This document shows, piece by piece, positions 45,361-61,384 of a stretch of DNA of 64,000 bases. The notes under the pieces were generated by a model that saw only the letters and a program-made list of their open reading frames with translations, made no database searches and was not told where the DNA came from. The translations under genes were made by a program, and so were the position numbers. How positions within the stretch are numbered: the first letter of the stretch is position 1; every line of letters starts with the position of its first letter. Source of the DNA: an uncultured Ignavibacteria bacterium (GTDB taxonomy: Bacteria > Zixibacteria > MSB-5A5 > SM1-73). The stretch lies in contig CAYOFL010000001.1 of NCBI GenBank assembly GCA_964403165.1, positions 6,521-70,520 of the forward strand, in the 5' to 3' direction.

Positions 45361-46239
45361 ATGTTGAAAAAATTCGAAAGAGAATCTCCTACTCTTTCCC
45401 AGTTTGGTCGCTATAAGATCATCCAGCTTTTAGGAAAGAGTGGAGGAGGGACGGTATATAAGGGAGTGGATACGGTGCTGGATAGGCCGGTGGCTCTGAA
45501 GACCATGAAAATGGTTTCTACCCTTTCTCCGGTTAAAATCTCTGCGCTTAAGGAGAGAATGATTCGAGAAGCCAAAGCGGCGGGCAAACTTTCTCATCCA
45601 AACATAGTGACCATCTACGATGTGGGCGAGGAAGGGAGTGTACACTATATAGCTATGGAATATCTGTCAGGCTATACCCTGGAAGAATTCATCAACAAGA
45701 AGGGAGCGCTAAACTATAGGATCGTTGCCAAAATCATTATGCAAACATGTGAGGCGTTGAACTATGCTCATCATCATGGGATCGTACATAGGGATATTAA
45801 ACCAGCCAACATCATGCTTTTAGAAGATTTTCACGTAAAGGTGATGGGCTTCGGAATTGCCGAACTGGGGGCAGGGTCACTGACCCTAAGTGAGGTAATA
45901 TTGGGGACTCCACATTACATCTCCCCGGAGCAGTTAGAGGGAGAGCCAGCAGACAAAAGGTCGGATATCTTTTCGTTAGGGGTGGTAATCTACGAGTTTC
46001 TCACCGGACGGAGACCTTTTCAAGGGGAAAACGTCAGTTCGCTTATGTATCGTGTTTTGAATCACCATCCTCCTCCCTCCTCAACTGTAAACGAAAAAAC
46101 TCCATTGGTGTTCGATCAAATCACATCCAGGGCTATGGCGAAAAAACCGGAGGAGAGATATCAGGATGCGGAAGAGATCAACCTAATCCTTAAAGAGTTT
46201 ATCTCCAGTTTCGTGGTTACTCGTAGCATTCGGATATAG
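45361..46239 (+). CDS. Ser/Thr protein kinase (kinase domain only)
   Basis: GGGTVYKG...ALK, HRDIKPANIML, GTPHYISPEQ. Confidence 0.85.
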   Translation: MLKKFERESPTLSQFGRYKIIQLLGKSGGGTVYKGVDTVLDRPVALKTMKMVSTLSPVKISALKERMIREAKAAGKLSHPNIVTIYDVGEEGSVHYIAMEYLSGYTLEEFINKKGALNYRIVAKIIMQTCEALNYAHHHGIVHRDIKPANIMLLEDFHVKVMGFGIAELGAGSLTLSEVILGTPHYISPEQLEGEPADKRSDIFSLGVVIYEFLTGRRPFQGENVSSLMYRVLNHHPPPSSTVNEKTPLVFDQITSRAMAKKPEERYQDAEEINLILKEFISSFVVTRSIRI

Positions 46240-46508: not shown

Positions 46509-46592
46509 TGCCGGAGTGGTGAAATTGGTAGACGCACGGGACTCAAAATCCCGCGACCCTCGGGTCGTGTCGGTTCGATTCCGACCTCCGGC
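46509..46592 (+). tRNA. tRNA-Leu (anticodon CAA), no encoded CCA
   Basis: Acceptor stem GCCGGAG/CTCCGGC, anticodon loop CTCAAAA, long variable arm CGACCCTCGGGTCGTG, T-loop GGTTCGATTCC. Confidence 0.9.
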
Positions 46593-46703
46593 ACAATGCA
46601 ATCAGGGGAATTCGAGAGAGTAAAGGGGGGGTCTTTTTTGTATGGTTTCAGGGGTGGACCCACCTTAAGCAGGGATATAATCGGTTAAAAAATGCCCCAA
46701 ACC

Positions 46704-47246
46704 CTATAATAGAGCTTGTCTTTTCTTCTCTTCCAGCAGGACAGAGCAAGCCTTGCAGAAATTTTTCGACTTGAAATCAATCTCTTCAGCGTAAGTGTAT
46801 GCATGCATCACGCACTCTGGTTCACGGCAGTGAATCAAACCAAAAGTATGTGCCAACTCGTGAATAGCTTCCTTTTCCAGCCGTTCTTTCAGCCGCTTTC
46901 GATTTTTGGGTAGTCCATAAAGCTCGTCTCGCAGACGATAGGAAGAGACTACCGCCGCTTTTCCTTCTAACTGAGCCTCGCCAAAAACAAAGGTTAGAAC
47001 CGGGACGTATAGGTCCACGTTGGTAACCCCTAAGACTTTGCAATTTTCTTCTGAAACCTTTTTCAGAAGCTGAGACAAAATCCAGGTGGAGTTGAATTGA
47101 TTTCGAACCAGATCATATCCTTCCTTTAAGGAAAAGGGCTCTTGCAGGAGAGAGACCGGTATTTTAAAGACCTTGGCGAGAACGGAAGAAAGATCTTCCA
47201 ATAGGTCGTTGTCTGCGAAACGGAGTGGCGTTATATAAAGCTTCAC
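46704..47246 (-). CDS. Archaemetzincin-like zinc peptidase (M54 family)
   Basis: HELAHTFGLIHCREPECVMH...CKAC matches the HExxHxxGxxHC...CxM...CxxC archaemetzincin signature. GTG start. Confidence 0.75.
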   Translation of the reverse strand: MKLYITPLRFADNDLLEDLSSVLAKVFKIPVSLLQEPFSLKEGYDLVRNQFNSTWILSQLLKKVSEENCKVLGVTNVDLYVPVLTFVFGEAQLEGKAAVVSSYRLRDELYGLPKNRKRLKERLEKEAIHELAHTFGLIHCREPECVMHAYTYAEEIDFKSKNFCKACSVLLEEKKRQALL

Positions 47247-47248
47247 GT

Positions 47249-48610
47249 CTATTTTCGTAAACCATATTTTTTAATCTTATGATACAGAGTAGCTCTATCA
47301 ATCCCTAACATTTCGGCTGAGCGAGTTATGTTCCATCCCATCTGCTCCAGAACATTCTTTATCTGAGCCCTTTCCACCGCTTCTAAGCTCTGATCATCAG
47401 GAAGGGCTTTTGAAGATGAAGGAATGGGAAGATCGTCCACAGTAATGGAAGACCCTTTTGCTACAACCACAGCTCTTTCGATGGCATTCCTCAGCTCTCG
47501 CACGTTCCCCGGCCAATCATATTGCTTTAATTTTTCCATTGCATCGGGAGAGATACGGGTTACGGGTTTGTTCGTGCTATTTGCCAGTTTCTTAAGGTAA
47601 TAATTGCACAAGAGCGGTATATCGGTGCGTCTTTCCCTCAAAGGAGGGATAGAGATGGAAAAGACGTTCAGCCTGTAATACAGATCCTCCCTGAATTTTT
47701 CCTCTTTGACAGCCAGCTCCAGATCACGATTGGTGGCACATATCAGGCGGAAATCCACCTGGATGATTTCATCCCCACCCACTCGAGTGAATTGTTTGGT
47801 TTCAATTACTCGCAAAAGGTCGGTCTGAGCTTTAGCGTCGATGTTTCCCACTTCATCCAAAAAGATGGTGCCTCCATTAGCCATCTCAAATTTTCCCTTG
47901 CGCCGATATAAGGCTCCGGTAAAAGCTCCCTTTTCGTGTCCAAAAAACTCACTTTCCGTCAAACCTTCTGTTAACCCCCCACAGTTGATGGTAATAATAG
48001 GGAAAAATCGCCTGGGGCTATTGGAATGAATGGCCCGGGCGATAAGCTCCTTACCAGTTCCGCTTTCTCCCTTAATCATTACGCTGGTATCTGTGGGAGC
48101 CACGGTTTTGATCAGGTCAAAAACTTTCGACATGGCTGGACTCTCCCCGACGATCTGGTCTATTTCATAAAGCTCCTGAATTCTTTCTTTGAGCTGGATA
48201 TTTTCCGAAAGCAATCGTCTTTGTTTGATGGCGTTGGCAACCAGATGAGAAAGGTAATCCGGGTCCACTGGCTTGGTAACATAGTCATACGCTCCCTCCT
48301 TGAGGGATTTAACTGCCGTATCCACGGAGGCATAAGCCGTGATCATGATAATGGTGGCATCTGGATCGATTTCTTTAATCCTCTGCTGTAACTCCATTCC
48401 GTCCATGCCCGGCAATTTTATGTCCAGAAAGATAATATCCCAAATTCCGGGCTTGAGTTTTTTTAAAGCCTCGTTGGCATCGACAGCAGCGTCTGCTTTG
48501 TAACCATCTTCGATAAACCATTTGGTCAGCGAATCACGCACGCTGAGCTCATCGTCCACAACTAAAATGCTTACTGATTTATCATTTTTGCTGAAATTCA
48601 TCACACTCAC
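47249..48610 (-). CDS. Sigma-54-dependent response regulator (NtrC family)
   Basis: Receiver domain (DD...D...K), AAA+ GESGTGKE, GAFTGA loop, C-terminal Fis-type HTH. Confidence 0.9.
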   Translation of the reverse strand: MSVMNFSKNDKSVSILVVDDELSVRDSLTKWFIEDGYKADAAVDANEALKKLKPGIWDIIFLDIKLPGMDGMELQQRIKEIDPDATIIMITAYASVDTAVKSLKEGAYDYVTKPVDPDYLSHLVANAIKQRRLLSENIQLKERIQELYEIDQIVGESPAMSKVFDLIKTVAPTDTSVMIKGESGTGKELIARAIHSNSPRRFFPIITINCGGLTEGLTESEFFGHEKGAFTGALYRRKGKFEMANGGTIFLDEVGNIDAKAQTDLLRVIETKQFTRVGGDEIIQVDFRLICATNRDLELAVKEEKFREDLYYRLNVFSISIPPLRERRTDIPLLCNYYLKKLANSTNKPVTRISPDAMEKLKQYDWPGNVRELRNAIERAVVVAKGSSITVDDLPIPSSSKALPDDQSLEAVERAQIKNVLEQMGWNITRSAEMLGIDRATLYHKIKKYGLRK

Positions 48611-50196
48611 CTCTTATTTTGCTCCTTTTTCGAAATTTGAGATTTTTCAAAGGAGAGCCTGTTTTTTTCATTCTCAATGGAATGCAGGGGAAGTTCAATA
48701 ATGAAAGTGGAGCCTTGTCCCAGCACTGAGGTAACCTCGATTTTTCCATTGTGTCTCTCTATAATACCATAGCACACCGATAAACCCAAACCTACTCCCT
48801 TGCCTTCCTTCTTGGTGGTATAGAAAGGTTCGAAAATATGCGGAAGATCCGCGGGAGCGATGCCTGGGCCGGTATCTTGAATCTGAATTTTCACTTTCTT
48901 TTTACGCAAATTGGAATTGGTTATTATACTTAAGCTGCCACCGTGGGGCATGGCCGCTGTGGCGTTATCTAAAATTGCCAAGAATGCCTGTTGGATCTGG
49001 TCTTTGTCGCAGATAACTTCTGCCCTCTCCCCCTGATAAGCTTTGACCAACTCTATATTGTTCAATTTCAAGTGATGTTCCACCAACTGCATACAACGGT
49101 CTAAGATCTGGTGCAAATCGACTACAACAAACTCTCCTATCTGCTTTTTGGAGAAAAGCAGGAGGTTTTTCACTATATTTCCACAGCGGCTGGTCTCGTC
49201 AGCTACTATAGAGAGGTCCTCCTGGATGGAGGAGAGCCGTTCAGGAGTCAAATTCGGTGAAGCCAGTTTCTTTTGCGTGAGCCGGGCGTAGGTCAATATT
49301 CCGCCCAGAGGGTTATTCAGCTCGTGTGCCACGCTAGCACAAAGTTTTCCCAAAGAAACCATCTTCTCCATCTGGACCAAGTGAGCCTGAATACGTCCCA
49401 ACTCTTCACGTGCCTTTTTTAATTCGGTGGTCATGATGTTGAAAGAATTCGCCAGTTCCCCGATTTCATCTTTTCGGTGAAGAGGAATGGTATAATCTAG
49501 GTTTCCCTGTGCAATAGCCCTTGTGCCCTCAGTCAGCTTGCGAACGGGCGCACGAATCAAAGTCCAGATCAAAAACCCTGTCACAAAAAGAACGCTGATC
49601 ACCAAGATAACAGATACCAAGATGGTCTGACGGCGGCTACGGGCAATGTCCGCATCTACGGTGGCCAAAGACATCTGCACGTCCAACACTCCCAGGATGA
49701 ATTTCTCATCCGGGTGTAAATGACAGCCGGAGCCGTAACAGGCTGGCTCGTTTTCTATGGGATTGATCAAAGCCAAGATCCGATGACCATCTGGAGCAGT
49801 TATGATCCTGTGGCGCTCTTTGGTGGCCAGAGCTTTAAGCGGTTCCGGATAGCGGTGACATACCTGACAAGCCTCGGAATTAATGGTAACTTTGGTTGAT
49901 GCTTCCTCAGGACGAGTGGTGAAAATGACTTCACCGTTTTTGTCGTAAATCCGAGTAACCTCAAACCCCGGCATCTGGCGGAAGTTTTCGAATATTTGAT
50001 GAATGTCCTCCTTACGGTTTATCAGCATGCTGTAATGAATGGATTCTTTGATCAGATCGGTAGTCCGGAGGGCGGCTAATTCAACCTGCTCCAGAAGGTC
50101 ATTGGCCTCGCTCTTAACGTTTATATAAGTAAAGGTAGCCAGGCCCACAAACATCACCAAGAACAGTGCAATGAAAAACTTTAATCCTAAAGGCAT
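48607..50196 (-). CDS. Sensor histidine kinase with extracytoplasmic domain carrying c-type heme-binding motifs, HAMP, HisKA and HATPase
   Basis: TM1 and TM2 bracket about 165 aa containing CQVCH and CYGSGCH. H-box SVAHELNNP. N, G1 (DTGPGI) and G2 (GVGLGLS) boxes. Confidence 0.85.
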   Translation of the reverse strand: MPLGLKFFIALFLVMFVGLATFTYINVKSEANDLLEQVELAALRTTDLIKESIHYSMLINRKEDIHQIFENFRQMPGFEVTRIYDKNGEVIFTTRPEEASTKVTINSEACQVCHRYPEPLKALATKERHRIITAPDGHRILALINPIENEPACYGSGCHLHPDEKFILGVLDVQMSLATVDADIARSRRQTILVSVILVISVLFVTGFLIWTLIRAPVRKLTEGTRAIAQGNLDYTIPLHRKDEIGELANSFNIMTTELKKAREELGRIQAHLVQMEKMVSLGKLCASVAHELNNPLGGILTYARLTQKKLASPNLTPERLSSIQEDLSIVADETSRCGNIVKNLLLFSKKQIGEFVVVDLHQILDRCMQLVEHHLKLNNIELVKAYQGERAEVICDKDQIQQAFLAILDNATAAMPHGGSLSIITNSNLRKKKVKIQIQDTGPGIAPADLPHIFEPFYTTKKEGKGVGLGLSVCYGIIERHNGKIEVTSVLGQGSTFIIELPLHSIENEKNRLSFEKSQISKKEQNKR

Positions 50197-50406: not shown

Positions 50407-51243
50407 TTACCAAGCCTGTTTTCCAGATGCCATCAGTTCGACTGCCAATCTCAGGCAAACCGGGCCGGGCAAGACTTGATGAAGGTATTTGATATGCGCT
50501 CCCCCGTCAGGGAGGGTCTCTCCTATCTGGTCGACTTGAATGCCTCTATGTTTGAGAAGAAATTTCAAATGCTGAGCCTCTTCTTCTAAGAATCTTCTCC
50601 CTGTAAGTCCAGTATAAAACTTACCCAGTTCTGAGTCACTTGGGAACCACTCTATCTCCGCCAGCCAGCCTTCCCCATAAGGATCCTGTTGCATCAGCTC
50701 TGGGCACTGGGCTAATTTGGAATTCGTTTGTACCACACGTCCAGAAAGGGGAGAAGTTAAAGGGACTGTTCCTGCCTGGGCATGTACTTTCCCAAATAGT
50801 TGATTCTGGAGCACTTTCGTATTTGAACCATATAACTCCACCTCCACCACAGGCGGCAGGACATACGCTAATAGTTTGTCAATCCCCAGCATCCATTTCT
50901 GCTCCTCTACCCGACGAACCCAAAGGTGAGTGGGGTGCAAATACAATTCTCCGCCCACCTCACCTACCGAGAAGGTAAAGAAGAGAGGGGGGTTCTTGGA
51001 ATCACTGCTTGCTATGGGGAGTTTTTCGGATGACACCAGAGTTTTCGGTTTATGCCTTTTGACTCTGGACCTTACCTCTTTCAACCTGACCTGGGATCTC
51101 ATCACCTCGTCAAAATCACAGTGCTCGCAATCATAGTTAAGGGGACATAATTTGAAGGAGATAACTCCAGCGGTCATCCAGATGCAGCGGTTTTGCGCGG
51201 TAGCAGATTCTATTTTTTGCTTTTTTGTAACTCTTTTTTTCAT
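50407..51243 (-). CDS. Cys-rich N-terminal domain fused to a GcvH-like (glycine cleavage H fold) domain
   Basis: The N-terminal cysteines are spaced C-x12-C-x5-C-x2-C (CIWMTAGVISFKLCPLNYDCEHC). The C-terminal HLWVRR...LGIDKLL...PLSGRVVQTN...DPYGEGWLAEIE parallels GcvH, but no Lys sits at the lipoylation turn. Confidence 0.6.
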   Translation of the reverse strand: MKKRVTKKQKIESATAQNRCIWMTAGVISFKLCPLNYDCEHCDFDEVMRSQVRLKEVRSRVKRHKPKTLVSSEKLPIASSDSKNPPLFFTFSVGEVGGELYLHPTHLWVRRVEEQKWMLGIDKLLAYVLPPVVEVELYGSNTKVLQNQLFGKVHAQAGTVPLTSPLSGRVVQTNSKLAQCPELMQQDPYGEGWLAEIEWFPSDSELGKFYTGLTGRRFLEEEAQHLKFLLKHRGIQVDQIGETLPDGGAHIKYLHQVLPGPVCLRLAVELMASGKQAW

Positions 51244-51289
51244 AAAATCGCCTTATTTTGTAAAAAGTTCTTCTCCAGTCGGAGAATTG

Positions 51290-52516
51290 TCAATGCATCC
51301 CCCTATAGTCCGGGTGTTCCCGGTGGACGGGCATTCGGTTCACGATCCACCGGTAGATTAAAATCTCGACGGTGATTATAGTTATTACTAAGATCAATTC
51401 CTTCCAGTGAAAGAATTCACGGTGCGGAAGTTTCCAGTTGAGTGCGATCATTGAAACGGTAAAACGGTTGATGATCACACCGAGGATGGTAAAAAAGGCT
51501 GTAAACCGGATAAGATCTACATTTCTTTTTTGGACTCCATAGGCGAAATAGAAACAAGGGAGAAGGACGAAAACAAAAATCTCCACCAAAAACCAATGAC
51601 CCCACGATGTGTTCAAAAGGTTCCAGTGGTTCCCATGGGCAACCCCGACCCACTTCAGGCAAAAGTAGGTTAAGAGGACCAGGGAGGCGGCTCTGCCCAA
51701 GCCGATGGTAAGTTTGTCAAAGCTCGCAGCGCGATGAGGGTCCATCCGGCCTCTGAGTGCCCGACGGGAAAGCGTGCTTTCAGCGATCACCATGGAAAGC
51801 CCGGCGAAGATGCTGGAAACGAAGAAAAACAAAGGTATGAACTCCGAATACCAGAGGGGATGTAGTTTTCCCGGGGCCAGAAGAAACAACGCCCCCAGTG
51901 CAGACTGGTGAAGTGTCGACAGAATTACCCCGAAGATCGTGGCTCCAATGGTTACCCTCAGGGCCCATCTGCGGAATCTATCCGAGCCAATCCACTCAAA
52001 GATGGTCGGGCAAAACTCTACGAACTGGGTTGAAAGATAGAGAGCCACATGCCAGCCCACCAGAAACAGAACAGAGGTTGTGCCAAATGAGATAGTCATG
52101 GGGTAAGGCAGTCGCCAGGGGCGACCCAAATCAAACAGGAGAAAGACCACAGCGAAGAGGTAACCTATTAAGCCTGTAAGGACAGCGGGTCGAACAAGCG
52201 AGTGGTAGTCTTTCAATCCAAAGAGATAAACGGCTGATGCCATTATATATCCTGTGGCAGCAAGAGGGACGCCGGTGAAAAGCCCCCACCCAAGAAAGAG
52301 TCCCCAGGGTTGATCTTGTGAGGCGTGCGTCACAGCGCCGAGTCCTTGAGTAAACCGCATTATCACAAAAGGAAGCCCAATCAGAATAATGATTCCAGCG
52401 ACGATGTTGAAAGGCTTGATTAGCCCCTTCAGGTATTCTTTGACACTGAGTCCGAGGAATATCCTATCTCGTACCCAAGACTGGACAACAGCTCTTTTTT
52501 CCGCATACTCGGCCAT
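51290..52516 (-). CDS. NrfD/PsrC-family integral membrane quinone-interacting subunit
   Basis: 408 aa with about 10 TM helices. Located after a Tat-exported 4Fe-4S subunit, as in Hmc/Nhc/Ohc, Psr and ACIII modules. Confidence 0.75.
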   Translation of the reverse strand: MAEYAEKRAVVQSWVRDRIFLGLSVKEYLKGLIKPFNIVAGIIILIGLPFVIMRFTQGLGAVTHASQDQPWGLFLGWGLFTGVPLAATGYIMASAVYLFGLKDYHSLVRPAVLTGLIGYLFAVVFLLFDLGRPWRLPYPMTISFGTTSVLFLVGWHVALYLSTQFVEFCPTIFEWIGSDRFRRWALRVTIGATIFGVILSTLHQSALGALFLLAPGKLHPLWYSEFIPLFFFVSSIFAGLSMVIAESTLSRRALRGRMDPHRAASFDKLTIGLGRAASLVLLTYFCLKWVGVAHGNHWNLLNTSWGHWFLVEIFVFVLLPCFYFAYGVQKRNVDLIRFTAFFTILGVIINRFTVSMIALNWKLPHREFFHWKELILVITIITVEILIYRWIVNRMPVHREHPDYRGMH

Positions 52517-52518
52517 GG

Positions 52519-53439
52519 TTAGTTCTCCTTTTTCTCCAGGAATTCCGCTTCCTCCTCATCCGTCTGCGCCCGATGCTGGGTGAACATGTAAAAGCCTCCT
52601 AAGAGGGCAGGCCAAATCACAAGTACGGCAGGAACCATGGAAAGGAACCCTTTGGTTAATTCCGGATAGGGCTTGGTGCCAATGTCCATGGGGAACCCCA
52701 ACTGTTCAAAGGGAACTCCTGAAATATATAGCCAGGAGGTTCCTCCCACTTCATGTTCTCCATAGATGTGGTCGACATATTTATCCGGATGATCCAGGAT
52801 CCTCCTCCAGGCAACTTTGATCAAGTCACTTCGCTTGCCGAAAGTCATGGCCTCCATGGGACAAGCCTCGACACATGCCGGAATGCCACCTTTGGAAATC
52901 CTGGTATCGTAACACATAGTACATTTTTTGATCTCCGGGGAAAACGGGTCATGGTACTCGTAAGCCGGGACGTAGAAGGGGCAGGCGGTCATACAATAGC
53001 GGCAACCTACACATACACCCTTGTTGTAAGTGACTGGCCCTTCCGGTGTTTTTGTGAAAGCTGCTACCAAGCAGGCAGAAGCGCAGGCCGGCTCGTCGCA
53101 ATGCCTGCATTGGTGCTTAACATAAATCGGCGATCCTTCAGGCTTAGGATTGGGATAACGATTAACCACAGTATAGGCCTTCTCGGTTGTTCTCCTTGTC
53201 TTTTCGAAGACAGATTGATCTTCAAAAGGAACCTCTGGTGGCGGCAAGTTATTCACCTGGTTGCAGGCAGCTTCGCACGTGCGACAACCAACACAACGGG
53301 TAAGATCGGTAAGAACACCAAAGCGATCTGGATAACCGGTAAGATGTTCGGCCCCGTGCGCCAACTTAGATTTACCAACCAAGCCCGCACCTCCAGCCGC
53401 TGCGGCAGCTTTCAAGAATTTTCTTCGGCTTATTCCCAT
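52519..53439 (-). CDS. Tat-exported 4x[4Fe-4S] ferredoxin subunit (NrfC/HmcB/DsrO-like) with C-terminal TM anchor
   Basis: Twin-arginine signal SRRKFLKAAAAAG. Multiple CxxCxxCxxxCP clusters. Hydrophobic C-terminal helix. Confidence 0.85.
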   Translation of the reverse strand: MGISRRKFLKAAAAAGGAGLVGKSKLAHGAEHLTGYPDRFGVLTDLTRCVGCRTCEAACNQVNNLPPPEVPFEDQSVFEKTRRTTEKAYTVVNRYPNPKPEGSPIYVKHQCRHCDEPACASACLVAAFTKTPEGPVTYNKGVCVGCRYCMTACPFYVPAYEYHDPFSPEIKKCTMCYDTRISKGGIPACVEACPMEAMTFGKRSDLIKVAWRRILDHPDKYVDHIYGEHEVGGTSWLYISGVPFEQLGFPMDIGTKPYPELTKGFLSMVPAVLVIWPALLGGFYMFTQHRAQTDEEEAEFLEKKEN

Positions 53440-53560
53440 CAGTAATCCTCCACTTAGTTTTGTTTGACCGTTATTTTCCTAAAGTCTCTTTCTCTCTGTT
53501 GTGTAACTGAATAAAACAACAAATGCGGTCAGAGCCTTCCGGCACCAACTGCGCGTGATT

Positions 53561-54349
53561 CTATTTCTTACTTACACCTGTCTTTTGGCTTACCTTCTTG
53601 GCATGGCATTCCGTGCAACCCACAGGGCCACCAATCTCCTTATGACAACCCATACATTGTAGATGGTATGCACCTTTAAGGCCTGGCATGTTCAGATTTT
53701 TAGGGTCAAACGGGGCACCATGGCATTCCCTGCATGAGGGAGTCTGACCAGCAGGGCTGTGATGATGGCACGTTGCGCAATTATCACTTATCACGGCATG
53801 CATGGCATGAGAAAATATCACCGGTTGGTATAACTTCTCCAGACTACTCATGGTATAGGTCTCTGTCACATGTTTCGAGCTCTTCTTCCCCACTACTTCT
53901 TTAGATGCAGGCTTAACCGGTGGCGTCTGGCTGGTTCTCTTGGTGTGACACTCCATGCAGCCGGTGGGCCCCATCTCCATCTCCCTATGACAACCCATGC
54001 ACTGGCGATGATATGCATCCTTGAGTCCTGGCATACCCGATTCCTTGGAAACCACTGAAGCCCCGTGGCACTTATTGCAGGATGGAGTCTGACCTGCTTC
54101 ACTGTGGTGGTGACACGTGGCACAATCCTCAACTACAAGGGAGTGCATGCCATGAGAGAATTCCACCGGTTCGTATATTTTGGCTATGGTGCCCAAGGAG
54201 CAAGTCTCAGGACCATTTTCTGAGGAGTATGTAGTTGCCTTGTTTGAAAGAATAAAAAGGCCAACGCATAACACCAGGACAGTGCCTAATATCGTTTTCC
54301 TGATCATTATATGCGAAGCATTCATACGAATCTCCCTTTTGTTTGGCAT
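53561..54349 (-). CDS. Octaheme cytochrome c (two tandem tetraheme cytochrome c3-like units)
   Basis: Eight CxxCH motifs in two repeats: CATCH, CNKCH, CMGCH, CMECH, then CATCH, CRECH, CMGCH, CTECH. N-terminal signal/anchor. Confidence 0.85.
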   Translation of the reverse strand: MPNKREIRMNASHIMIRKTILGTVLVLCVGLFILSNKATTYSSENGPETCSLGTIAKIYEPVEFSHGMHSLVVEDCATCHHHSEAGQTPSCNKCHGASVVSKESGMPGLKDAYHRQCMGCHREMEMGPTGCMECHTKRTSQTPPVKPASKEVVGKKSSKHVTETYTMSSLEKLYQPVIFSHAMHAVISDNCATCHHHSPAGQTPSCRECHGAPFDPKNLNMPGLKGAYHLQCMGCHKEIGGPVGCTECHAKKVSQKTGVSKK

Positions 54350-55036
54350 TTAGATTTGTTTGCTCACGTCTGTATTAAAAAACTCCTGGGTTACCTGTTC
54401 CCATTGTTGCGGAGTTAATTCATCACCTAAATTGGGTTTGATCTCCCCGCCTTCTTGTAAAACTGGATATTCGCCTGGCACTAAAACAGCTACCAACTGC
54501 TCCTTGACCGCTTGGTTCCAACGAGCCAATGTCTCTCCTGAAAAAAGATTCTTTAGTTCTCGAGCCAGACCGGTAGGTTCAACCTTTAAAATCCAATTTT
54601 CTTTTGGATTTTTCTGATTTAAGAGTTTTGGATTTTCCATAAGCTTCTTGTTGACCTCCACGACTCTACCACTGATGGGGGAGGCTTGAACTAATTCCCT
54701 TTCGCCTCTTTTTATTTTCCAAGCTTTACTCCCCTGGTAAATTTTATCGCCCTGGCTGGGAAGCTCGATCTTTTGAATGGAACCGAAAACTGATGAGGTG
54801 AACTCATCCATTCCCACATTCACCACATTGGGTTGGAGTACCTCTGCCCAACTATGAGTTGGGTGAGTAAAGATTTCCTTACTGATTTTGAAGGATTCAA
54901 CAGCTAATTCTGTCAGTGGACGGTAATGAGGATTACTCAAAAATCTCCAGAAAAAAATGAATAGCACCATGAACACAATAGCTATTAAATACTCATTACC
55001 TTTGGTTGCAAGCAGAAATTCCTGAAGAGTATGCAT
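54350..55036 (-). CDS. Membrane-anchored GcvH-like protein (paralog 1)
   Basis: One N-terminal TM helix. HPTHSWAEV...VGMDEFT...PISGRVVEVNKKLMENPKLLN...WILKVEP parallels GcvH. Confidence 0.6.
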   Translation of the reverse strand: MHTLQEFLLATKGNEYLIAIVFMVLFIFFWRFLSNPHYRPLTELAVESFKISKEIFTHPTHSWAEVLQPNVVNVGMDEFTSSVFGSIQKIELPSQGDKIYQGSKAWKIKRGERELVQASPISGRVVEVNKKLMENPKLLNQKNPKENWILKVEPTGLARELKNLFSGETLARWNQAVKEQLVAVLVPGEYPVLQEGGEIKPNLGDELTPQQWEQVTQEFFNTDVSKQI

Positions 55037-55089
55037 CTTTAGGCCCTTTCGATATTGTTAAGTTATCGCAACTGCTCCTTTGTCTGTCT

Positions 55090-55728
55090 TTAAAAAAACT
55101 CCTGAGCTATCTTTGCCCACTGTTGAGATGTTAATTCGTCTCCCAAATTAGGTTTGATTTCCCCTCCTTCTTGCAGGACTGGAAATTCTGCTAAAGTCAG
55201 GGTAGCTACCAACTGTTCTTTTATAACTTGATTCCACCGAGTTAGCATATTCCCATGGAGCAGATTTTGCAGTTCTCTTTTCAGTCTGATGGGCTTGATT
55301 TTTAATATCCAGCTCACTCTGGTATCCTTTTGGAGTAAGAACTTGGGATTGTGCACCAGATCTTGATTGATTTCCACCACTCTTCCGCTGATGGGTGCAG
55401 TTTGAACCAGTTTCCGTTTTCCTCTTCTTAAACCCCAGACTTTTCCACCTTGTTGAATGATAGTGCCCGGCTCTGGAAGAGTGAATCGGTCAACCGAACC
55501 AAAGACAGATTTGGTGAACTCATCAGTTCCAACAGTAACCAAGTTGGGCTTGATCGCCTCCACCCAGGCATGTCCTGGATGGACAAAGATTCCTTCCATG
55601 AATGGGATCAATTTGGCTTTGTGGGCTTCCTTTTGGGGAACCGCCGCATGTTTCCTTTCAAGCCAGGTGCCTATTCCAATTGCGATCCCCACGAAAAGCA
55701 GAGCAAGGATTACGGACATTTTAATCAC
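55090..55728 (-). CDS. Membrane-anchored GcvH-like protein (paralog 2); the likely true start is the ATG at 55719
   Basis: N-terminal TM helix followed by a basic stretch. HPGHAWVEA...VGTDEFT...PISGRVVEINQDL...WILKIKP. RBS aggtga precedes the ATG at 55719. Confidence 0.6.
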   Translation of the reverse strand: MIKMSVILALLFVGIAIGIGTWLERKHAAVPQKEAHKAKLIPFMEGIFVHPGHAWVEAIKPNLVTVGTDEFTKSVFGSVDRFTLPEPGTIIQQGGKVWGLRRGKRKLVQTAPISGRVVEINQDLVHNPKFLLQKDTRVSWILKIKPIRLKRELQNLLHGNMLTRWNQVIKEQLVATLTLAEFPVLQEGGEIKPNLGDELTSQQWAKIAQEFF

Positions 55729-55775
55729 CTCGACTTTTTGTTAATGGTTAACGGTTCATTGCATCGCCTAATAAA

Positions 55776-55790
55776 GCAAAGGGGATGCCA
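55776..55790 (-). promoter_or_regulatory. Sigma-54 (-24/-12) promoter upstream of the GcvH-like/cytochrome operon
   Basis: The minus strand reads TGGCATCCCCTTTGC, with GG and GC at canonical spacing (TGGCAC-N5-TTGC consensus). About 50-60 nt upstream of the start codon, with an NtrC-family regulator downstream. Confidence 0.65.
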
Positions 55791-56097: not shown

Positions 56098-56433
56098 GAT
56101 TAAGCTGATGAGTGGTTATAAACATCTGTTTAATCTGCTTCATCTGTTGTGAATGCATGGGTGGAGAAGCCCGGCCAAAAGTGAGATGGGCCTATTTGGA
56201 TCTACGGGGAGAGATTAATTTCTCACAGCTGATTATTTGGATTAAGCTGATGAGTGGTTATAAACATCTGTTTAATCTGTTTCATCAGTTGTGAATGCAT
56301 GGGTGGAGAAGCCCGGCCAAAAGTGAGATGGGCCTATTTGGATCTACGGGGAGAGATTAATTTCTCACAGCTGATTATTTGGATTAAGCTGATGAGTGAT
56401 TATAAACATCCGTTTAATCTGTTTCATCTGTTG
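56098..56433. repeat. 142-bp tandem direct repeat, 2 full copies plus a partial third
   Basis: Unit starts (GATTAAGCTGATGAG) at 56098, 56240 and 56382. Copies are nearly identical by eye. Confidence 0.9.
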
Positions 56434-56768
56434 GGAAATCTGCCGTTGGTAACGGATGCCTCGCTCGTTACCTTCGAGGCTCAACTTTCCCGTCACAGAC
56501 AGGGTGTCCTTGACGAAACAAGGGGGGACAATCTTACATGTCGGGCAGTCCGAAAGGACCGCCCAACCTACCGCTGCCCAAATAGGGGTAAAAGTTGGGG
56601 CAGGGGTTTAACCCCTGCCCCAACAAGGGGATGTTTCGTTATGCTCAACATGACAGGCAGTCTGTCAACTTATGTATTCGCTTGTCATAATAAGAACCAA
56701 TTCGTTTTAGATATTGTGTTTTAAGAAAAATGTATTAAATTACCTATGAGTATCCAAACTAATGCTGA

Positions 56769-57148: not shown

Positions 57149-57838
57149 ATGATCTCTGCCAAATTTAATAGCGGAAAATTCATAAAAGAAAAAAAAGAAG
57201 ATGTTGATGCCAAGAGCGCTCAGAACAAATCCAAGGGATCAGAGTCCAGCGCGGAAGACAAAGATCTTCTGGAGATTATAGAGAGAGCAAAGAAAGGAGA
57301 TGAAAGCGCTTTTCAACAGATCGTAGATAAGTATAAGACCCAGGTGGCTAGTATCGCTTTCAAGATGGTGGGAGATTATGAGGACGCCAAAGATATCTCA
57401 CAGATAGTATTTGTCAAGACCTATCAAAACCTGGTCAACTTTGACACCAGCAAGAAGCTTTCCACCTGGCTTTATCGAATAACCATTAATGCTTCCATTG
57501 ATTTCATCCGAAAACATAAAAAGCACAAGCATGAACTTTTAGACAATATCTTCGGCGAACTGAAGGAAAAGAAACAAGATGTAGAGAAAATTTATCAGCG
57601 CAATTTAATAAAATGGGCGATCAACAGTTCCATGGACGCGCTTAACCCCAGACAAAAGGCTGTTTTTGTTCTGCGGGATCTGGAAGGGTTAGACATTAAA
57701 GAGGTTGCCCAGATAACCGGCATGCCACAGGCTACTGTGCGGTGGTATTTACATAGAGCACGATCCAAACTGAGAAGTGAGTTGACAAAGTATCATCCTC
57801 AACTATTAAAGAAGATGGGGATAAAACATGAGGTGTAG
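57149..57838 (+). CDS. ECF-type RNA polymerase sigma factor with Lys/Ser-rich N-terminal extension
   Basis: Region 2 (AFQQIVDKYKTQV...DAKDISQIVFVKTYQNL...WLYRITINASIDFIRK) and region 4 (FVLRDLEGLDIKEVAQITGMPQATVRWYLHRARSKLR). Confidence 0.85.
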   Translation: MISAKFNSGKFIKEKKEDVDAKSAQNKSKGSESSAEDKDLLEIIERAKKGDESAFQQIVDKYKTQVASIAFKMVGDYEDAKDISQIVFVKTYQNLVNFDTSKKLSTWLYRITINASIDFIRKHKKHKHELLDNIFGELKEKKQDVEKIYQRNLIKWAINSSMDALNPRQKAVFVLRDLEGLDIKEVAQITGMPQATVRWYLHRARSKLRSELTKYHPQLLKKMGIKHEV

Positions 57839-58304
57839 AAAGGCTAAAAAGCTGATCCTCAGTTATCCCGAGCTAAATTCGCCCCAAAAGAAGAGACTGG
57901 ATAAGCATCTTGTATCCTGCCCTCACTGCTCTTACGAATTCTCCCTCCATCTGAAATCCATCAATCTACTAAAAGACGTTAGAAACTTCGAGGAGTCCAA
58001 GGATTTCTGGGAGGGCTACGAGGTGAATCTAAAAAGAAAGATTCCACCTTTTCCTTTCTGGAGCAGAGTCTGGACAAAAATAGAAGGGTTCACCAGCCTT
58101 TTCAGGACTCCTGTTTTGGGCCCGGTTCCCGCTTATGTGTTCTCTTTCGTCCTAATAGCGCTTTTGACCTTGAGCCTTTATCCGAGCCTGGTCTCTTCCA
58201 AAAATGCAAAAGGCTTCAAAAACAATCTGGTGGTCTATGAAGGGGAACTACTTTCAGCAGTAGATGATGAAGGGGTGACCATTTACACCTTAGAGGACAG
58301 ATAG
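57828..58304 (+). CDS. Anti-sigma factor (zinc-binding ZAS type) with one TM helix
   Basis: HLVSCPHC (Hx3Cx2C). Overlaps the sigma gene by 11 nt. Hydrophobic segment VPAYVFSFVLIALLTLSLY. Confidence 0.7.
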   Translation: MRCRKAKKLILSYPELNSPQKKRLDKHLVSCPHCSYEFSLHLKSINLLKDVRNFEESKDFWEGYEVNLKRKIPPFPFWSRVWTKIEGFTSLFRTPVLGPVPAYVFSFVLIALLTLSLYPSLVSSKNAKGFKNNLVVYEGELLSAVDDEGVTIYTLEDR

Positions 58305-58396
58305 CAAAAGGCAACAAATGAGGATCTTTTAAAAAACGATCTGGGTGAGGAGAAGGAGTCAAAGATCGTTCGAAATTTGATAAAGTTTAGGGGAGT

Positions 58397-59422
58397 ATGC
58401 GGTCAAGGAAAAAAAAGGCGGGAGTTTTCCTCTGGCTTTCTGGGATGATAATCCTTTTAGGCGGATGTAGCGAAAGCTCGCTTCGGGGTCTGGAGGAAGA
58501 CTTAGCCAAAGTTGTGGAAAAGGCGGGGCCTTCTGTAGTCTGCTTGATGGCTAAAAATGAAAGCTCCGGGGAGGTGAAGTTCGGCTCCGGAGTGGTTTTG
58601 GGTGGGGGGTATATTCTCGCCACGGAAAATATCTTAGACAACGTAGATAACATCACCGTGAAGTTACAGGATGGACGGGTAATAAACGACCACGAGATCG
58701 TTGGGATATTTTGTGACTTCGAAACCAATGTCAGTTTGATTCAGGTGAAAAATAAGGAGCTTGAGCCGATCCGCATTATGGAAGAGGGGAAGATAGAGAA
58801 CGGATGTCTGGGCATCGCATTAGGAAATACCAATTATTCCAAGGGCTTGGATGTCAGTCTGGGCACGGTGACCAAATCCTGGATAGGGGGGGCGGATGCA
58901 TATGATGAGAGCCTTTTGATCTGGCACGGCCCTGTGGTCCCCTACCATGGAGGAACCCCCATATTCAACCGCAAGGGAGAGCTTTTAGGTTTAACTGAGG
59001 GCATACCCAAAGGGAAAGATGGGGTGGTCTTCATCTTGCCTGCCAGAACCTGTATGCGAGTAAGCGAGGTGCTTAAAAAAGATGGTAAGGTAAAAAGAGG
59101 GTGGATTGGAATCTTCTGTGAAAGAGAGTCACGTAAGTGTGAAAAGGGAAAAACTTCAGAAGGTGTTTTGATAACAAAGGTAATGGAAGAAAGCCCTGCC
59201 TTTAGAGCAGGATTAAATCCCGGTGATAGAATCGTCAGCTTTAACGGAAAACCGATCGAAAGCTCATCTCAGCTCAGAAGGCTTATCTCTACTACGGGAG
59301 TAGGGTCCCACGTCCTGCTAAATGTGATCCACCGAGGCGATGATAGAGGATCAAATGTCGTAATCAAAACGACTGAACATAATGGTTTGGGAATGAGAAG
59401 ATGTCCCCACCGGTCAATTTAA
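58397..59422 (+). CDS. Lipoprotein, HtrA-like trypsin fold plus PDZ but with all three catalytic residues substituted (pseudo-protease)
   Basis: Lipobox LLGGC. Aligned against the HtrA at 59846: LTNAHVV becomes LATENIL (His to Asn), DLAVIKI becomes NVSLIQV (Asp to Asn), and GNSGGPL becomes YHGGTPI (Ser to His). A PDZ-like C-terminus is present. Confidence 0.65.
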   Translation: MRSRKKKAGVFLWLSGMIILLGGCSESSLRGLEEDLAKVVEKAGPSVVCLMAKNESSGEVKFGSGVVLGGGYILATENILDNVDNITVKLQDGRVINDHEIVGIFCDFETNVSLIQVKNKELEPIRIMEEGKIENGCLGIALGNTNYSKGLDVSLGTVTKSWIGGADAYDESLLIWHGPVVPYHGGTPIFNRKGELLGLTEGIPKGKDGVVFILPARTCMRVSEVLKKDGKVKRGWIGIFCERESRKCEKGKTSEGVLITKVMEESPAFRAGLNPGDRIVSFNGKPIESSSQLRRLISTTGVGSHVLLNVIHRGDDRGSNVVIKTTEHNGLGMRRCPHRSI

Positions 59423-59564
59423 AAATTTCTCACTCGCTGGAACTTCTCACCTCTTTTTTTGTATATCCTAATATAAAGACTGGTTGAGATTATGGGAACT
59501 AAGGTATGAGGGTTGAAAGTTCTCCAAAGAAAGGCACAAAACCTTTTAAAACAAGGAGGCAAAG

Positions 59565-59726
59565 ATGGCTATTGACCCGATTTGCCTGATGGAGATAGAC
59601 GAGAAGAGCGCTCCCGCCAAGAGCGTGTATAATGGTCAGACTTTTTATTTTTGCAACGAAAATTGTAAACAGAAGTTCGAAGAGGATCCGGAGAAATATA
59701 TAGACGTGGAGAGGAAAGAAAACTAA
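59565..59726 (+). CDS. YHS/TRASH-domain small metal-binding protein (53 aa)
   Basis: Manual translation gives MAIDPICLMEIDEKSAPAKSVYNGQTFYFCNENCKQKFEEDPEKY. DPxCxM...YYFC..C...F is the YHS signature. RBS aaggagg lies 6 nt upstream. Not in the ORF track because it is under 60 aa. Confidence 0.7.
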   Translation: MAIDPICLMEIDEKSAPAKSVYNGQTFYFCNENCKQKFEEDPEKYIDVERKEN

Positions 59727-59845
59727 GCAAGCATAAAGATGAGTTGATTTCATTTATTCGAGTCATTCAATTTGGGTCGGGAAAAGGTTTTGACTGGACA
59801 GGAAACCATCCCGACCTCTTAATATTAGTATAAGAGAATTTGAAA

Positions 59846-61384
59846 ATGTCAACCTCCAGCGCTAAAAAGGTAGGCGTAACATTTTTTTCCATTATCCTCG
59901 GTATGATAGTTGGAGCAATCATACTGGTTTTACTCTATGCTTTCGGACTCTTCCATCCTCCGTTTTCGACAGGACCTGAAGGATCAGTGGAGGAGGATGT
60001 ATTCCCCCCAGCGCCTGCCATGGTGCAAACTTCTGCATCTGTGCAAGATGAGATAACGAATAGCCGGCAGAACGCCATAGTCTATGCCGCACAAAAGGCG
60101 GGTCCAGCCGTGGTGTCCATCAGCGTGATTCAGGTGAGGGTGATCAGAGAGCATCCTTTTTTCTCCCCATTTAGGGATGAGTTTTTTGACGAGTTTTGGG
60201 AAAGGTTCTTTCGCCCCCGGGAATATAAAGAGAAAGTTTACAGCATCGGCTCCGGGTTCGTAATAAATCCGGAAGGATTTATATTGACCAACGCCCATGT
60301 GGTAAGAGGGGCAGACCAGCTAAAGGTGAGTTTGACCACCGGAGAGGAATATGAAGGAAAAGTAGTGGGCTTAGATGAAGTTTCAGATCTGGCGGTAATC
60401 AAAATTGATGCAGAAAATTTACCCTCGGTGGTTTTAGGCAACTCCGATGATCTGATAATCGGGGAGTGGGCCATTGCCATTGGTAATCCCTTTGGCTATC
60501 TTCTGGACGATCCCAATCCTACCGTGACCGTGGGAGTCATCAGTGCAGTTAATCGAGACATAAAAAAAGAAAGAGGTCAGGTTCAGATCTACAGAAAGAT
60601 GATTCAGACTGATGCCGCCATAAATTTAGGAAACTCAGGTGGACCTCTGGTGAACGCCTCCGGTGAAGTGATTGGAATCAACACCTTCATCTTTACCACC
60701 AGCCGGGGATCTGAGGGGATCGGCTTTGCCATACCCATCAATCGGGCTAAGGCAATACTTTCCGATCTGCTCAAACACGGAAGGATCATCCCTGCCTGGA
60801 TTGGTTTAAGGGTGCAAGAGGTCAATCCCATACTGGCACAGAGCCTGGATTTGGATAAGGCTGAGGGAGTGATCGTATCCGACGTGGAGGAGGATAGCCC
60901 GGCACAAAAAGCGGGCTTGAAAATGAAGGACGTTATAATAAAGGTGGATGATCAAAAGATCAGAAACTTAAGCGACTGGGAGGACTTAGTCTATCTGGTC
61001 AGAGAAAAGCAGGGCTTGGACATCACTTTTGTGCGGGATGGCGAAAAGACACGTGCCCGATTAGTGCCGGAAATACTTCCCACTCAAGCAAGCAAAGCTT
61101 CCCAAACAGAGCTGGGGATTACCGTGGCTAACATAAGCTCGTCCGTTGCCTACCAGTTGGGAATAACTGATCGGAGAGGAGTAGTCGTGATCGGTGTGGA
61201 CAAAGAAGGCATCGCTTACAAGGCTGGTCTGGAGGTGGGAGATATAATCCGAAAAATCGGCGATCAATTGATTAGAAATATCAAAGACTATGAAAAAGCA
61301 ATAAGCAGTAAGAAGAATAAAGAAAGAATGCTTTTGTTGATTGAGCGGCATGGTGTTTTGTATTTTGTTTCCTTGGAGGTGTGA
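59846..61384 (+). CDS. Periplasmic serine endoprotease HtrA/DegP/DegQ family with two PDZ domains
   Basis: Intact triad contexts LTNAHVV, DLAVIKI and GNSGGPL. Two PDZ-like segments. N-terminal TM anchor. Confidence 0.9.
   Translation: MSTSSAKKVGVTFFSIILGMIVGAIILVLLYAFGLFHPPFSTGPEGSVEEDVFPPAPAMVQTSASVQDEITNSRQNAIVYAAQKAGPAVVSISVIQVRVIREHPFFSPFRDEFFDEFWERFFRPREYKEKVYSIGSGFVINPEGFILTNAHVVRGADQLKVSLTTGEEYEGKVVGLDEVSDLAVIKIDAENLPSVVLGNSDDLIIGEWAIAIGNPFGYLLDDPNPTVTVGVISAVNRDIKKERGQVQIYRKMIQTDAAINLGNSGGPLVNASGEVIGINTFIFTTSRGSEGIGFAIPINRAKAILSDLLKHGRIIPAWIGLRVQEVNPILAQSLDLDKAEGVIVSDVEEDSPAQKAGLKMKDVIIKVDDQKIRNLSDWEDLVYLVREKQGLDITFVRDGEKTRARLVPEILPTQASKASQTELGITVANISSSVAYQLGITDRRGVVVIGVDKEGIAYKAGLEVGDIIRKIGDQLIRNIKDYEKAISSKKNKERMLLLIERHGVLYFVSLEV

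Follow-up and report, generated by a model that had tools for sequence, protein, structure and literature searches.

A predicted Nhc/Hmc-type redox operon of Zixibacteria that encodes GcvH-fold proteins without a conserved lipoyl lysine

The Nhc complex of Desulfovibrio is a simplified form of the Hmc complex, composed of NhcABCD and lacking the E and F subunits (PMC4215793). The roles and the cytoplasmic partners of Hmc, Nhc, and Tmc are still unsettled; for Hmc and Tmc, either DsrC or a ferredoxin has been suggested to act on the inner side of the membrane (PMC4215793). A GcvH-like protein, LbpA, is essential for the sHdr pathway, and all 95 LbpAs keep the lipoyl lysine, most of them along with two extra cysteines (PMC6067878). 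Here we describe, in a 64-kb stretch of DNA from an uncultured member of the Zixibacteria (called the window below), a minus-strand operon predicted to encode an Nhc/Hmc-type membrane redox complex, in which the HmcD helix is fused to a GcvH fold and a helix-DGG-helix domain. Two further GcvH-fold proteins are encoded by the same operon and, judged from their sequences, none of the three proteins is a lipoyl carrier. The operon and its regulatory genes lie at 46.7-55.8 kb of the window and comprise the following features, in the order of transcription of the genes, with the promoter given last.

55090..55728, minus strand: membrane-anchored GcvH-fold protein 1 (212 amino acids, aa); transmembrane (TM) helix, GcvH fold, and helix-EGG-helix; GCV_H E-value 4.6e-14
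54350..55036, minus strand: HmcD-GcvH fusion (228 aa); HmcD-like N-terminus with TM helix at residues 2-34, GcvH fold at about 55-155, C-terminal PVLQEGGEIKPxLGDEL; GCV_H E-value 1.4e-18
53561..54349, minus strand: octaheme cytochrome c (262 aa); signal or anchor sequence, two c3-type tetraheme units
52519..53439, minus strand: HmcB, 4x[4Fe-4S] protein exported by the twin-arginine translocation (Tat) system; TAT_signal, C-terminal TM anchor
51290..52516, minus strand: HmcC, NrfD-family integral membrane subunit; Pfam NrfD E-value 6.5e-19
50407..51243, minus strand: soluble Cys4-GcvH-DGG protein (278 aa); Cys4 motif, GcvH fold, C-terminal TLPDGG; GCV_H E-value 1.7e-17
48607..50196, minus strand: sensor histidine kinase; Pfam HAMP, HisKA, and HATPase, with heme-c motifs
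47249..48610, minus strand: NtrC-type sigma-54-dependent response regulator; Pfam Response_reg, Sigma54_activat, AAA_lid_14, and HTH_8
46704..47246, minus strand: archaemetzincin (peptidase M54); NCBIfam archmetzin 164 bits vs a cut-off of 145
55776..55790, minus strand: predicted sigma-54 (-24/-12) promoter TGGCATccccTTTGC; one mismatch to TGGCAC-N5-TTGC

The start of hmcC overlaps the stop of hmcB by 4 nt, and overlaps of the same length are found between the regulator start and the kinase stop and between the regulator and peptidase genes, the archaemetzincin gene being translationally coupled to the regulator gene. A gap of 210 nt lies between the gene for the third GcvH-fold protein and that for the kinase.

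The respiratory core and its described relatives

Assignment of the core is based on a set of family models. HmcB passes the NCBIfam HmcB equivalog (446.2 bits vs a cut-off of 420) and has 16 cysteines in four cluster motifs and a hydrophobic C-terminal segment. HmcC scores 494.5 bits against the NCBIfam HmcC model, below the cut-off of 550, yet this is its best match by far. Residues 2-34 of the HmcD-GcvH fusion pass the NCBIfam model sulf_resp_HmcD (36 bits vs a cut-off of 34), and homologs of this protein bear the precomputed Pfam family PF28260 DVU_0533. The cytochrome contains eight CxxCH motifs and two Pfam Cytochrom_CIII stretches; its best NCBIfam matches are the C-terminus of HmcA (117.8 bits, cut-off 400), the nine-heme cytochrome (9HemeCytC, 107.9 bits, cut-off 640), and TmcA, all of them under the cut-offs. 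No HmcE (cytochrome b) or HmcF (CCG/HdrD-like) candidate was found among the open reading frames (ORFs) at 46.7-55.8 kb, with Pfam and NCBIfam searched. The combination of a short HmcA with the B, C, and D subunits, without HmcE and HmcF, therefore corresponds to the layout of an Nhc-like core.

Like the Nhc complex of Desulfovibrio, the window operon combines a shortened c3-type cytochrome, an HmcB-type iron-sulfur (FeS) protein, HmcC, and an HmcD-type helix, both lacking HmcE and HmcF, and they share a presumed function, in which periplasmic cytochromes exchange electrons with the quinone pool. In contrast to Nhc, the window cytochrome has eight hemes, not nine; the HmcD-type helix is fused to a module of ~190 aa, composed of the GcvH fold and the DGG domain and most likely cytoplasmic; the operon adds a second anchored paralog and a soluble Cys4 paralog; its predicted regulation involves a sigma-54 promoter, a di-heme kinase, a regulator, and an M54 peptidase; and the lineage of the organism, Zixibacteria according to the nearest labeled homologs, is not known as a sulfate reducer. 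The comparison with HmcABCDEF of D. vulgaris is similar: HmcB and HmcD pass the cut-offs, HmcC comes close, and the best alignment of the cytochrome is with the C-terminal portion of HmcA, whereas HmcA has 16 hemes compared with eight in the window, and HmcE and HmcF, through which electrons in Hmc cross the membrane and reach a cytoplasmic CCG protein, are missing. The cytoplasmic side of the window complex would consist instead of GcvH-fold proteins, in which no redox center is recognizable save one Cys4 motif.

The second-best family match is HybA/HybB of the Escherichia coli hydrogenase-2, with 238 bits for the FeS subunit and 220 bits for the NrfD subunit, both under the cut-offs. This enzyme likewise combines a Tat-exported, C-terminally anchored FeS protein with a cofactor-less NrfD-type quinone subunit, but the window has no hydrogenase genes and encodes the extra GcvH-fold subunits. 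The Ohc complex consists of the octaheme OhcA with OhcB and OhcC, and no Ohc model occurs among the NCBIfam matches of the window proteins.

A previous sequence-only reading of this DNA had proposed a six-gene minus-strand operon, with an octaheme cytochrome made of two c3-like units, a Tat-exported FeS protein, an NrfD subunit, an overall likeness to the Hmc/Nhc class, and a sigma-54 promoter, a heme-motif kinase, and an NtrC-family regulator around it. The order and boundaries of the ORFs were confirmed here, the core proteins were recognized by the family models given above, and the regulatory elements were recovered by the promoter scan, the heme motifs, and the Sigma54_activat domain. As was proposed for Nhc, electrons would move between periplasmic donors, the octaheme cytochrome, HmcB, and the quinone pool at HmcC, the NrfD-type subunit being the presumed quinone site. 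Since HmcB is Tat-exported and the NrfD-type subunit carries no cofactor, no electron path to the cytoplasm is evident in the window.

GcvH fold, lipoyl column, and membrane topology

All three proteins score above the gathering score of Pfam GCV_H, and they are the only GcvH-fold ORFs in the whole window. The AlphaFold2 (AF2) model of the HmcD-GcvH fusion consists of a TM helix at residues 4-34 and a GcvH fold, and Foldseek matched it to 1onl, 3klr, and 3ab9 with target-normalized TM-scores of 0.80-0.83 (0.81 for 1onl) and probability 1.0. The structural motifs of H-proteins, HxW, PxSG, and GW, are kept, so that the proteins share the hybrid barrel-sandwich fold of the canonical GcvH. The two anchored proteins are 53% identical, and the mean column identity of the paralogs is 73%.

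It could be supposed that these are ordinary lipoylated H-proteins or lipoyl carriers that stand next to a respiratory operon by chance, as would be suggested by their public annotation, which is "glycine cleavage system protein H" throughout, and by a lysine that is present in the lipoyl column of the first anchored protein. Their scores with the GcvH equivalog of NCBIfam (TIGR00527), 43.3, 56.7, and 54.7 bits, are far under its cut-off of 115.85. In HMMER alignments to solved H-proteins, ungapped through the lipoyl hairpin, the column of the lipoyl lysine is occupied by E112 in the HmcD-GcvH fusion and by A157 in the Cys4 protein, the latter being placed by the alignment to 3ift; the hairpin tips of the AF2 models are residues 111-112 and 156-157, respectively. 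The lysine of the first anchored protein, K104, stands in the context RRGKRK, and the members of its family have K, K, T, and T in this column. In the family of the HmcD-GcvH fusion the column reads E85/K7/D7 among 122 members, and the arginine at the next position (R113) is invariant; in the anchored proteins of all loci this next position is R in 70 of 91 and K in 17 of 91. The lipoyl column is variable in the Cys4 family (37 members), and among 128 Cys4-GcvH representatives only 2% have a lysine in it. Because arginine cannot be lipoylated and the lipoyl column is variable, the GcvH-fold proteins of the window are predicted not to be lipoyl carriers. Moreover, their TM anchor or Cys4 extension and their C-terminal domain are foreign to canonical H-proteins, and the linkage to FeS/NrfD genes is kept down to 25-33% identity. 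No gcvT or gcvP gene was found at 46-60 kb, a range that covers the operon with its immediate flanks, and no lipoate ligase or radical-SAM lipoate gene in the operon, according to the ORF list and Pfam. Taken together, we give the ordinary H-protein explanation hardly any credence. The three GcvH-like domains of the sequence-only reading, and its placement of Glu, Lys, and Ala at a lipoyl position where lysine is not conserved, agree with the profile search and the alignments, none of the three families keeping a lysine column.

The same comparison separates the window proteins from LbpA. In Hyphomicrobium denitrificans and other bacteria with the sHdr pathway, GcvH-fold proteins are also tied genetically to a redox enzyme, but the window proteins lack the lipoyl lysine, the operon lacks lipoate ligase genes, and the TM, Cys4, and DGG extensions are missing from LbpA; homologs of HdrABC were found only in a variant locus that is described below. 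The window proteins lack the two conserved cysteines that DsrC carries on its flexible C-terminal arm. No conserved lysine or cysteine is present in the GcvH domain, and a Cys motif of any kind is missing from the anchored proteins.

The GcvH domains are most likely located on the cytoplasmic face of the membrane, as the charges around the TM helix suggest. In most distant homologs of the anchored proteins three to seven K/R residues follow the helix, compared with zero or one before it. According to an alternative explanation, the hydrophobic N-termini would be signal peptides that are cleaved off, and the GcvH domains would be periplasmic partners of the cytochrome and the FeS protein. The first anchored protein starts with MIKM and a hydrophobic run, which looks superficially like a signal peptide, and a periplasmic location would allow direct contact with the HmcA-like cytochrome and HmcB. 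However, this run of 19 residues is followed by five K/R within 17 residues, a bias shared by distant homologs, and the pre-helix segment of the HmcD-GcvH fusion, which is conserved and acidic or neutral, fits HmcD. In addition, a paralog from Bacteroidales consists, in this order, of a signal peptide, a domain of ~330 aa, a TM helix, RWNRK, and the GcvH fold; the GcvH fold comes after the second membrane pass and is therefore placed inside the cell. Finally, the Cys4 protein has neither a signal peptide nor a hydrophobic segment, and it is, like a form fused to HdrC (see below), plainly cytoplasmic. In view of the charge bias, the Bacteroidales fusion, the soluble Cys4 form, and the HdrC fusion, a periplasmic site is highly improbable, and the cytoplasmic location suggested earlier from the basic stretch behind the helix seems to be correct. 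The outer domain of ~330 aa has no Pfam match and is encoded by the first cassette gene of three Bacteroidales loci (L026, 5064-6851; L029, 4815-6602; L030, 653-2383).

The C-terminal domain of ~70 residues, common to all three proteins, is composed of a helix, a loop with an invariant Gly-Gly (PVLQEGGEI or TLPDGG), and a second helix. Across its alignment, these two glycines are the only invariant residues, and in the anchored proteins the domain contains no cysteine. A profile search of the PDB with this domain gave only matches with E>=0.07; the one to 3vjz/3wur (E 0.32), which have the similar string TLADGG, was judged to be due to chance. A role of the DGG loop as a Gly-Gly processing site of the ubiquitin/ThiS type, cleaved by the M54 peptidase, was also considered and seems unlikely: the helix after DGG is conserved as well, the same unit runs in-frame into HdrC in locus L102, and the cassette contains no E1-like gene.

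The Cys-rich N-terminus of the third GcvH-fold protein, noticed in the sequence-only reading, proved to be also a signature of the family. Its motif, RCIWMTAGVISFKLCPxxYDCExC (C-x12-C-x5-C-x2-C), includes a tryptophan, and C20, W22, C33, C39, C42, and D246-G247-G248 are invariant down to members that are 22-30% identical. The spacings of five and two residues recall those of cluster-binding sensors. With the threshold at E<=1e-30, a Cys4 profile run against 1.84 billion representative proteins matched 75 clusters (50% identity), and the number rose to 1,478 at E<=1e-10; nearly all of the best 150 profile matches have the architecture Cys4, GcvH fold, DGG, some of them with two to four copies of Cys4. 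Their named sources are Zixibacteria, Bacteroidota, Ignavibacteriales, WOR-3, Aminicenantes/Acidobacteriota, and candidate division B38, and their public labels are only "glycine cleavage system protein H" or hypothetical protein. Some multi-Cys4 proteins from Aminicenantes and related metagenome-assembled genomes (MAGs) (P0246, P0287) bear an additional conserved Cys-rich N-terminus, MKCPFLExxVxxCKAYP. Pfam scans of the Cys4 region, of both DGG domains, and of this extra N-terminus gave no match.

The conserved cassette and its predicted regulation

The distribution of the system was analyzed in 27 loci from a scan of species-representative genomes and in 80 fetched loci out of 440 metagenome relatives of the Cys4 protein, the metagenome query being a narrowed alignment; the nine proteins of the window were scored against all ORFs of the fetched loci. 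An exact protein look-up for the window itself retrieved no record. The recurring set consists of the anchored GcvH-DGG protein, HmcB-like and HmcC-like subunits, the Cys4-GcvH-DGG protein, the di-heme kinase, the sigma-54 regulator, and archaemetzincin. Zixibacteria, Bacteroidota, Ignavibacteriales, WOR-3, and Aminicenantes/Acidobacteria all have representatives with this cassette, whose genes are arranged in two or more orders, and it persists when the Cys4 protein is only 25-33% identical. Among the 27 distinct loci with long flanks, HmcB and HmcC are present together in 26, a second GcvH-fold gene in all 27, and the kinase and regulator nearby in 21; two further locus look-ups agree with the conservation of the cassette. 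The linkage is not due to chance, since the gene order recurs across more than 100 fetched loci. Thus the association of GcvH-fold and FeS/NrfD genes, initially seen in one genome, holds across phyla. The observations that had been named beforehand as evidence against the sequence-only reading, namely a lysine conserved in all three proteins, lack of linkage in other genomes, and cleaved signal peptides, were not made.

The cytochrome is a dispensable part of the cassette: it is confined to one Zixibacteria type and a few other loci and is missing from most distant cassettes. In the Bacteroidales loci examined, both the cytochrome and the Cys4 protein are absent. The export of the FeS subunit is also variable: 23 of 58 distinct HmcB-like proteins, mostly from cytochrome-less cassettes (L055, L060, L066, L069, L071-L074, L077, L080, L081, L088, L089, L091, L095, L108), have no Tat or other signal peptide and keep the C-terminal anchor. 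A flipped topology of the NrfD subunit, considered for these loci, is not supported: with ten helices resolved, the K/R bias of HmcC is alike in cassettes with and without the Tat signal.

Several loci show additional features. The HmcC-like subunit of L073, L074, L077, and L080 is 531-538 aa long and contains one additional TM helix, as well as a C-terminal domain bearing three CxxCH motifs. For L073, L074, and L077, the genes immediately preceding the cassette encode three cytochromes, which have seven to nine heme motifs. A bacteriorhodopsin-like protein is encoded directly after the cassette archaemetzincin in one MAG of Bacteroidales (L027, 7930-8775).

In another type of locus the membrane pair is replaced. 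L102/L103 (780-13071), and probably L110, contain no FeS/NrfD pair, and they encode an FrhB-like protein, a HdrA homolog of 1,036 aa, a GcvH-DGG::HdrC fusion, a HdrB (CCG) homolog, and a free GcvH-DGG protein. Also present in L102/L103 are a Cys4 protein with two Cys motifs, the M54 peptidase, the sigma-54 regulator, and, on the other strand, a soluble or cytoplasmic kinase. No Hdr genes were found in or adjoining the window operon by the ORF list and Pfam. The exchange of HmcBC for an HdrABC-like enzyme indicates that the GcvH-DGG and Cys4 proteins, kinase, regulator, and M54 peptidase form the constant part of the cassette, whereas the redox module is exchangeable. A different fusion is represented by P0276, a metagenome protein of 505 aa, in which Cys4-GcvH-DGG is joined to HisKA and HATPase_c without TM helices or HAMP; it is known from a single cluster on two short contigs.

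The candidate sigma-54 promoter, TGGCATccccTTTGCT at 55776-55790 on the minus strand, is among just three matches with one mismatch to TGGCAC-N5-TTGC in the 64-kb window and is located 48 nt upstream of the first start codon, a GTG at 55728. Upstream of the first cassette gene, -24/-12 sites with the GG/GC core were observed in 29 of 58 distinct loci vs 4.1% of random 265-nt windows, which is an approximately 12-fold enrichment, and sigma-54 sites occupy conserved positions in the Zixibacteria relatives; scans for sigma-70 promoters and for terminators remained at background level. The kinase has two TM helices around a periplasmic domain that contains two heme-c motifs, CQVCH and CYGSGCH (CxxCH and Cx4CH), at residues 110 and 153; both motifs are kept in the membrane-type cassettes examined, including distant loci. 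An M54 peptidase gene comes next after the regulator gene in Zixibacteria and Bacteroidales and also in many metagenome loci without assignment.

The operon thus contains both a correctly spaced GG/GC promoter and a cognate enhancer-binding protein, and it is predicted to depend on RpoN. We infer, as a reasonable interpretation, a redox-sensing feedback loop, in which the kinase would sense the periplasmic redox state by its hemes and turn the operon on via the activator and the sigma-54 promoter. A mini-ORF intervenes in many Zixibacteria relatives, so that their sigma-54 site is located further upstream. This mini-ORF has its own ribosome-binding site, encodes only a copy of the TM helix of the first anchored protein (MSVILGL...WRERK), and is situated between the sigma-54 promoter and the first TM-GcvH gene (L006, L008, L015, L016, L024, L031, L041, L076); it is absent from the window. 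The intergenic region of the window, about 300-650 nt upstream of the sigma-54 promoter, contains 2.4 tandem copies of a 142-bp unit with 96% matches (56098-56437), which may serve the activator as enhancer sites or else be a repetitive or mobile element.

Possible roles of the GcvH-fold proteins, and the flanking genes

For the GcvH-fold domains, we favor, tentatively and as a minority estimate of our own, the role of cofactor-less adaptor or regulatory subunits on the cytoplasmic face, with no lipoyl-bound shuttle. The anchored GcvH-DGG protein, whose anchor is homologous to HmcD and which is thus presumably a stable subunit, would pair through the shared C-terminal domain with the soluble Cys4 paralog, a possible metal or Fe-S protein, and through this pair cytoplasmic partners, possibly the cognate two-component system, could be linked to the state of the redox module. 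The adaptor role is preferred because the GcvH domain has no conserved modifiable residue, because the signaling pair travels with the cassette, and because a kinase is fused to the Cys4-GcvH-DGG unit in P0276. It is also preferred because the NrfD-type subunit is without a cofactor that could carry electrons inward from a Tat-exported FeS protein, and because the cassettes examined outside Bacteroidales pair at least one tethered form with a soluble Cys4 form that has the same C-terminal domain. The whole explanation, that is, an Nhc/Hmc-type core with redox-sensing regulation and cytoplasmic GcvH-fold adaptors, seems to us evenly poised between right and wrong.

Several observations weigh against it. 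The adaptor role is argued by exclusion and from a single kinase fusion cluster, and the AF2 models are confident for the GcvH core only, the predicted local distance difference test (pLDDT) of the Cys4 region and the DGG domain being <50. In about one third of the Zixibacteria loci, genes for the kinase, the regulator, and the M54 peptidase are not present immediately downstream. Two-component systems are commonly transferred together with the operon that they control, and this does not have to reflect a physical interaction. Further, electrons could pass directly to the GcvH-fold proteins in those cassettes whose FeS subunit is Tat-less, provided that this subunit faces the cytoplasm. Finally, the association with HdrABC-like proteins and the Cys4 motif suit the role of a redox partner at least as naturally.

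The latter role is the main rival explanation, according to which redox equivalents or sulfur are actually carried by the GcvH-fold proteins as functional analogs of DsrC or LbpA. They would act via an unrecognized group, such as a Cys4 Fe-S cluster or a new modification, and be reduced or oxidized by the membrane complex or, in the variant cassette, by the Hdr-like enzyme. The GcvH-DGG domain fused to HdrC, next to homologs of HdrB and HdrA in L102/L103, the invariant Cys4 motif, the essential role of the GcvH-like LbpA in the sHdr pathway (PMC6067878), the unsettled partner of Hmc and Tmc, for which DsrC or ferredoxin was suggested (PMC4215793), and the Tat-less FeS subunits of many cassettes, which could face the cytoplasm, are all in favor of such carriers. 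At the same time, the lysine that defines LbpA is missing and the GcvH domain offers no conserved lysine or cysteine in its place; the anchored proteins are devoid of Cys motifs; the window HmcB is exported and its NrfD partner is without cofactors, leaving no evident inward path; and the topology bias of HmcC is equal in Tat-positive and Tat-negative cassettes. We regard the carrier role as doubtful on balance. Of the DsrC/LbpA-like carrier proposed in the sequence-only reading, the analogy gained from the HdrABC-paired variant, and its chemistry, which would need a conserved lysine or cysteine and a cofactor path inward, did not find support in the window.

The GcvH-fold proteins and archaemetzincin might also be factors for assembly, maturation, or turnover of the complex, like the products of accessory genes in hydrogenase operons, rather than its working subunits. 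The hyb operon carries maturation genes, and HybA/HybB are also near relatives of HmcB/HmcC; the conserved genes of the cassette include one for a protease; and a chaperone would be suited by the C-terminal domain, which is modeled with low confidence and possibly depends on a partner. This explanation is unlikely, since the anchor is homologous to HmcD, the product of a stoichiometric subunit gene of Hmc/Nhc operons, the GcvH-DGG domain is fused in-frame to HdrC, and two to three strongly conserved paralogs per operon suggest structural subunits.

A broader formulation takes as the constant unit, instead of the respiratory complex, a module of enzyme-tethered GcvH-DGG, soluble Cys4-GcvH-DGG, kinase, regulator, and archaemetzincin, which would plug into either an FeS/NrfD or an HdrABC-like enzyme. 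The lipoate-free H-fold would then act as a transducer that signals the redox or turnover state of the enzyme to the two-component system or as a carrier with novel chemistry; we consider this possible, though on the doubtful side.

The respiratory core itself is of an already known kind, and control by sigma-54 and a two-component system is ordinary. No description of an association between GcvH-fold and Hmc-type proteins was found in the searchable literature (GcvH with HmcD, NrfD with glycine cleavage, archaemetzincin with sigma-54). Apparently undescribed in this literature are the fusion of HmcD to a GcvH fold, the GcvH-DGG and Cys4-GcvH-DGG families without the lysine, their conserved cassette, and their pairing with Hdr-like enzymes; that the constant module itself is something new is a serious possibility. 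The widespread variant in which HmcD carries a folded cytoplasmic domain, a domain that is alternatively fused to HdrC, provides a testable handle on the inner contacts of complexes of the Hmc, Nhc, and Tmc type. The analysis also reveals a misannotated family in at least six phylum-level lineages, with two domains, Cys4 and DGG, that have no Pfam model. We know of no role for bacterial archaemetzincins, for which the cassette now offers a setting in the genome. If it is true that the H-protein fold works without lipoate here, this would extend the known functions of a classic swinging-arm domain.

In the flanks of the operon, a tRNA-Leu(CAA) gene (46510-46594, plus strand) is located directly downstream of the archaemetzincin gene on the opposite strand and is preceded by a Ser/Thr-kinase-like ORF (45361-46239, plus strand). 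On the other side, the region 57149-61384 (plus strand) contains ORFs that resemble an extracytoplasmic function (ECF) sigma factor, a CxxC anti-sigma factor, and two proteases of the HtrA/PDZ type; these flanking ORFs were assigned from their translations alone.

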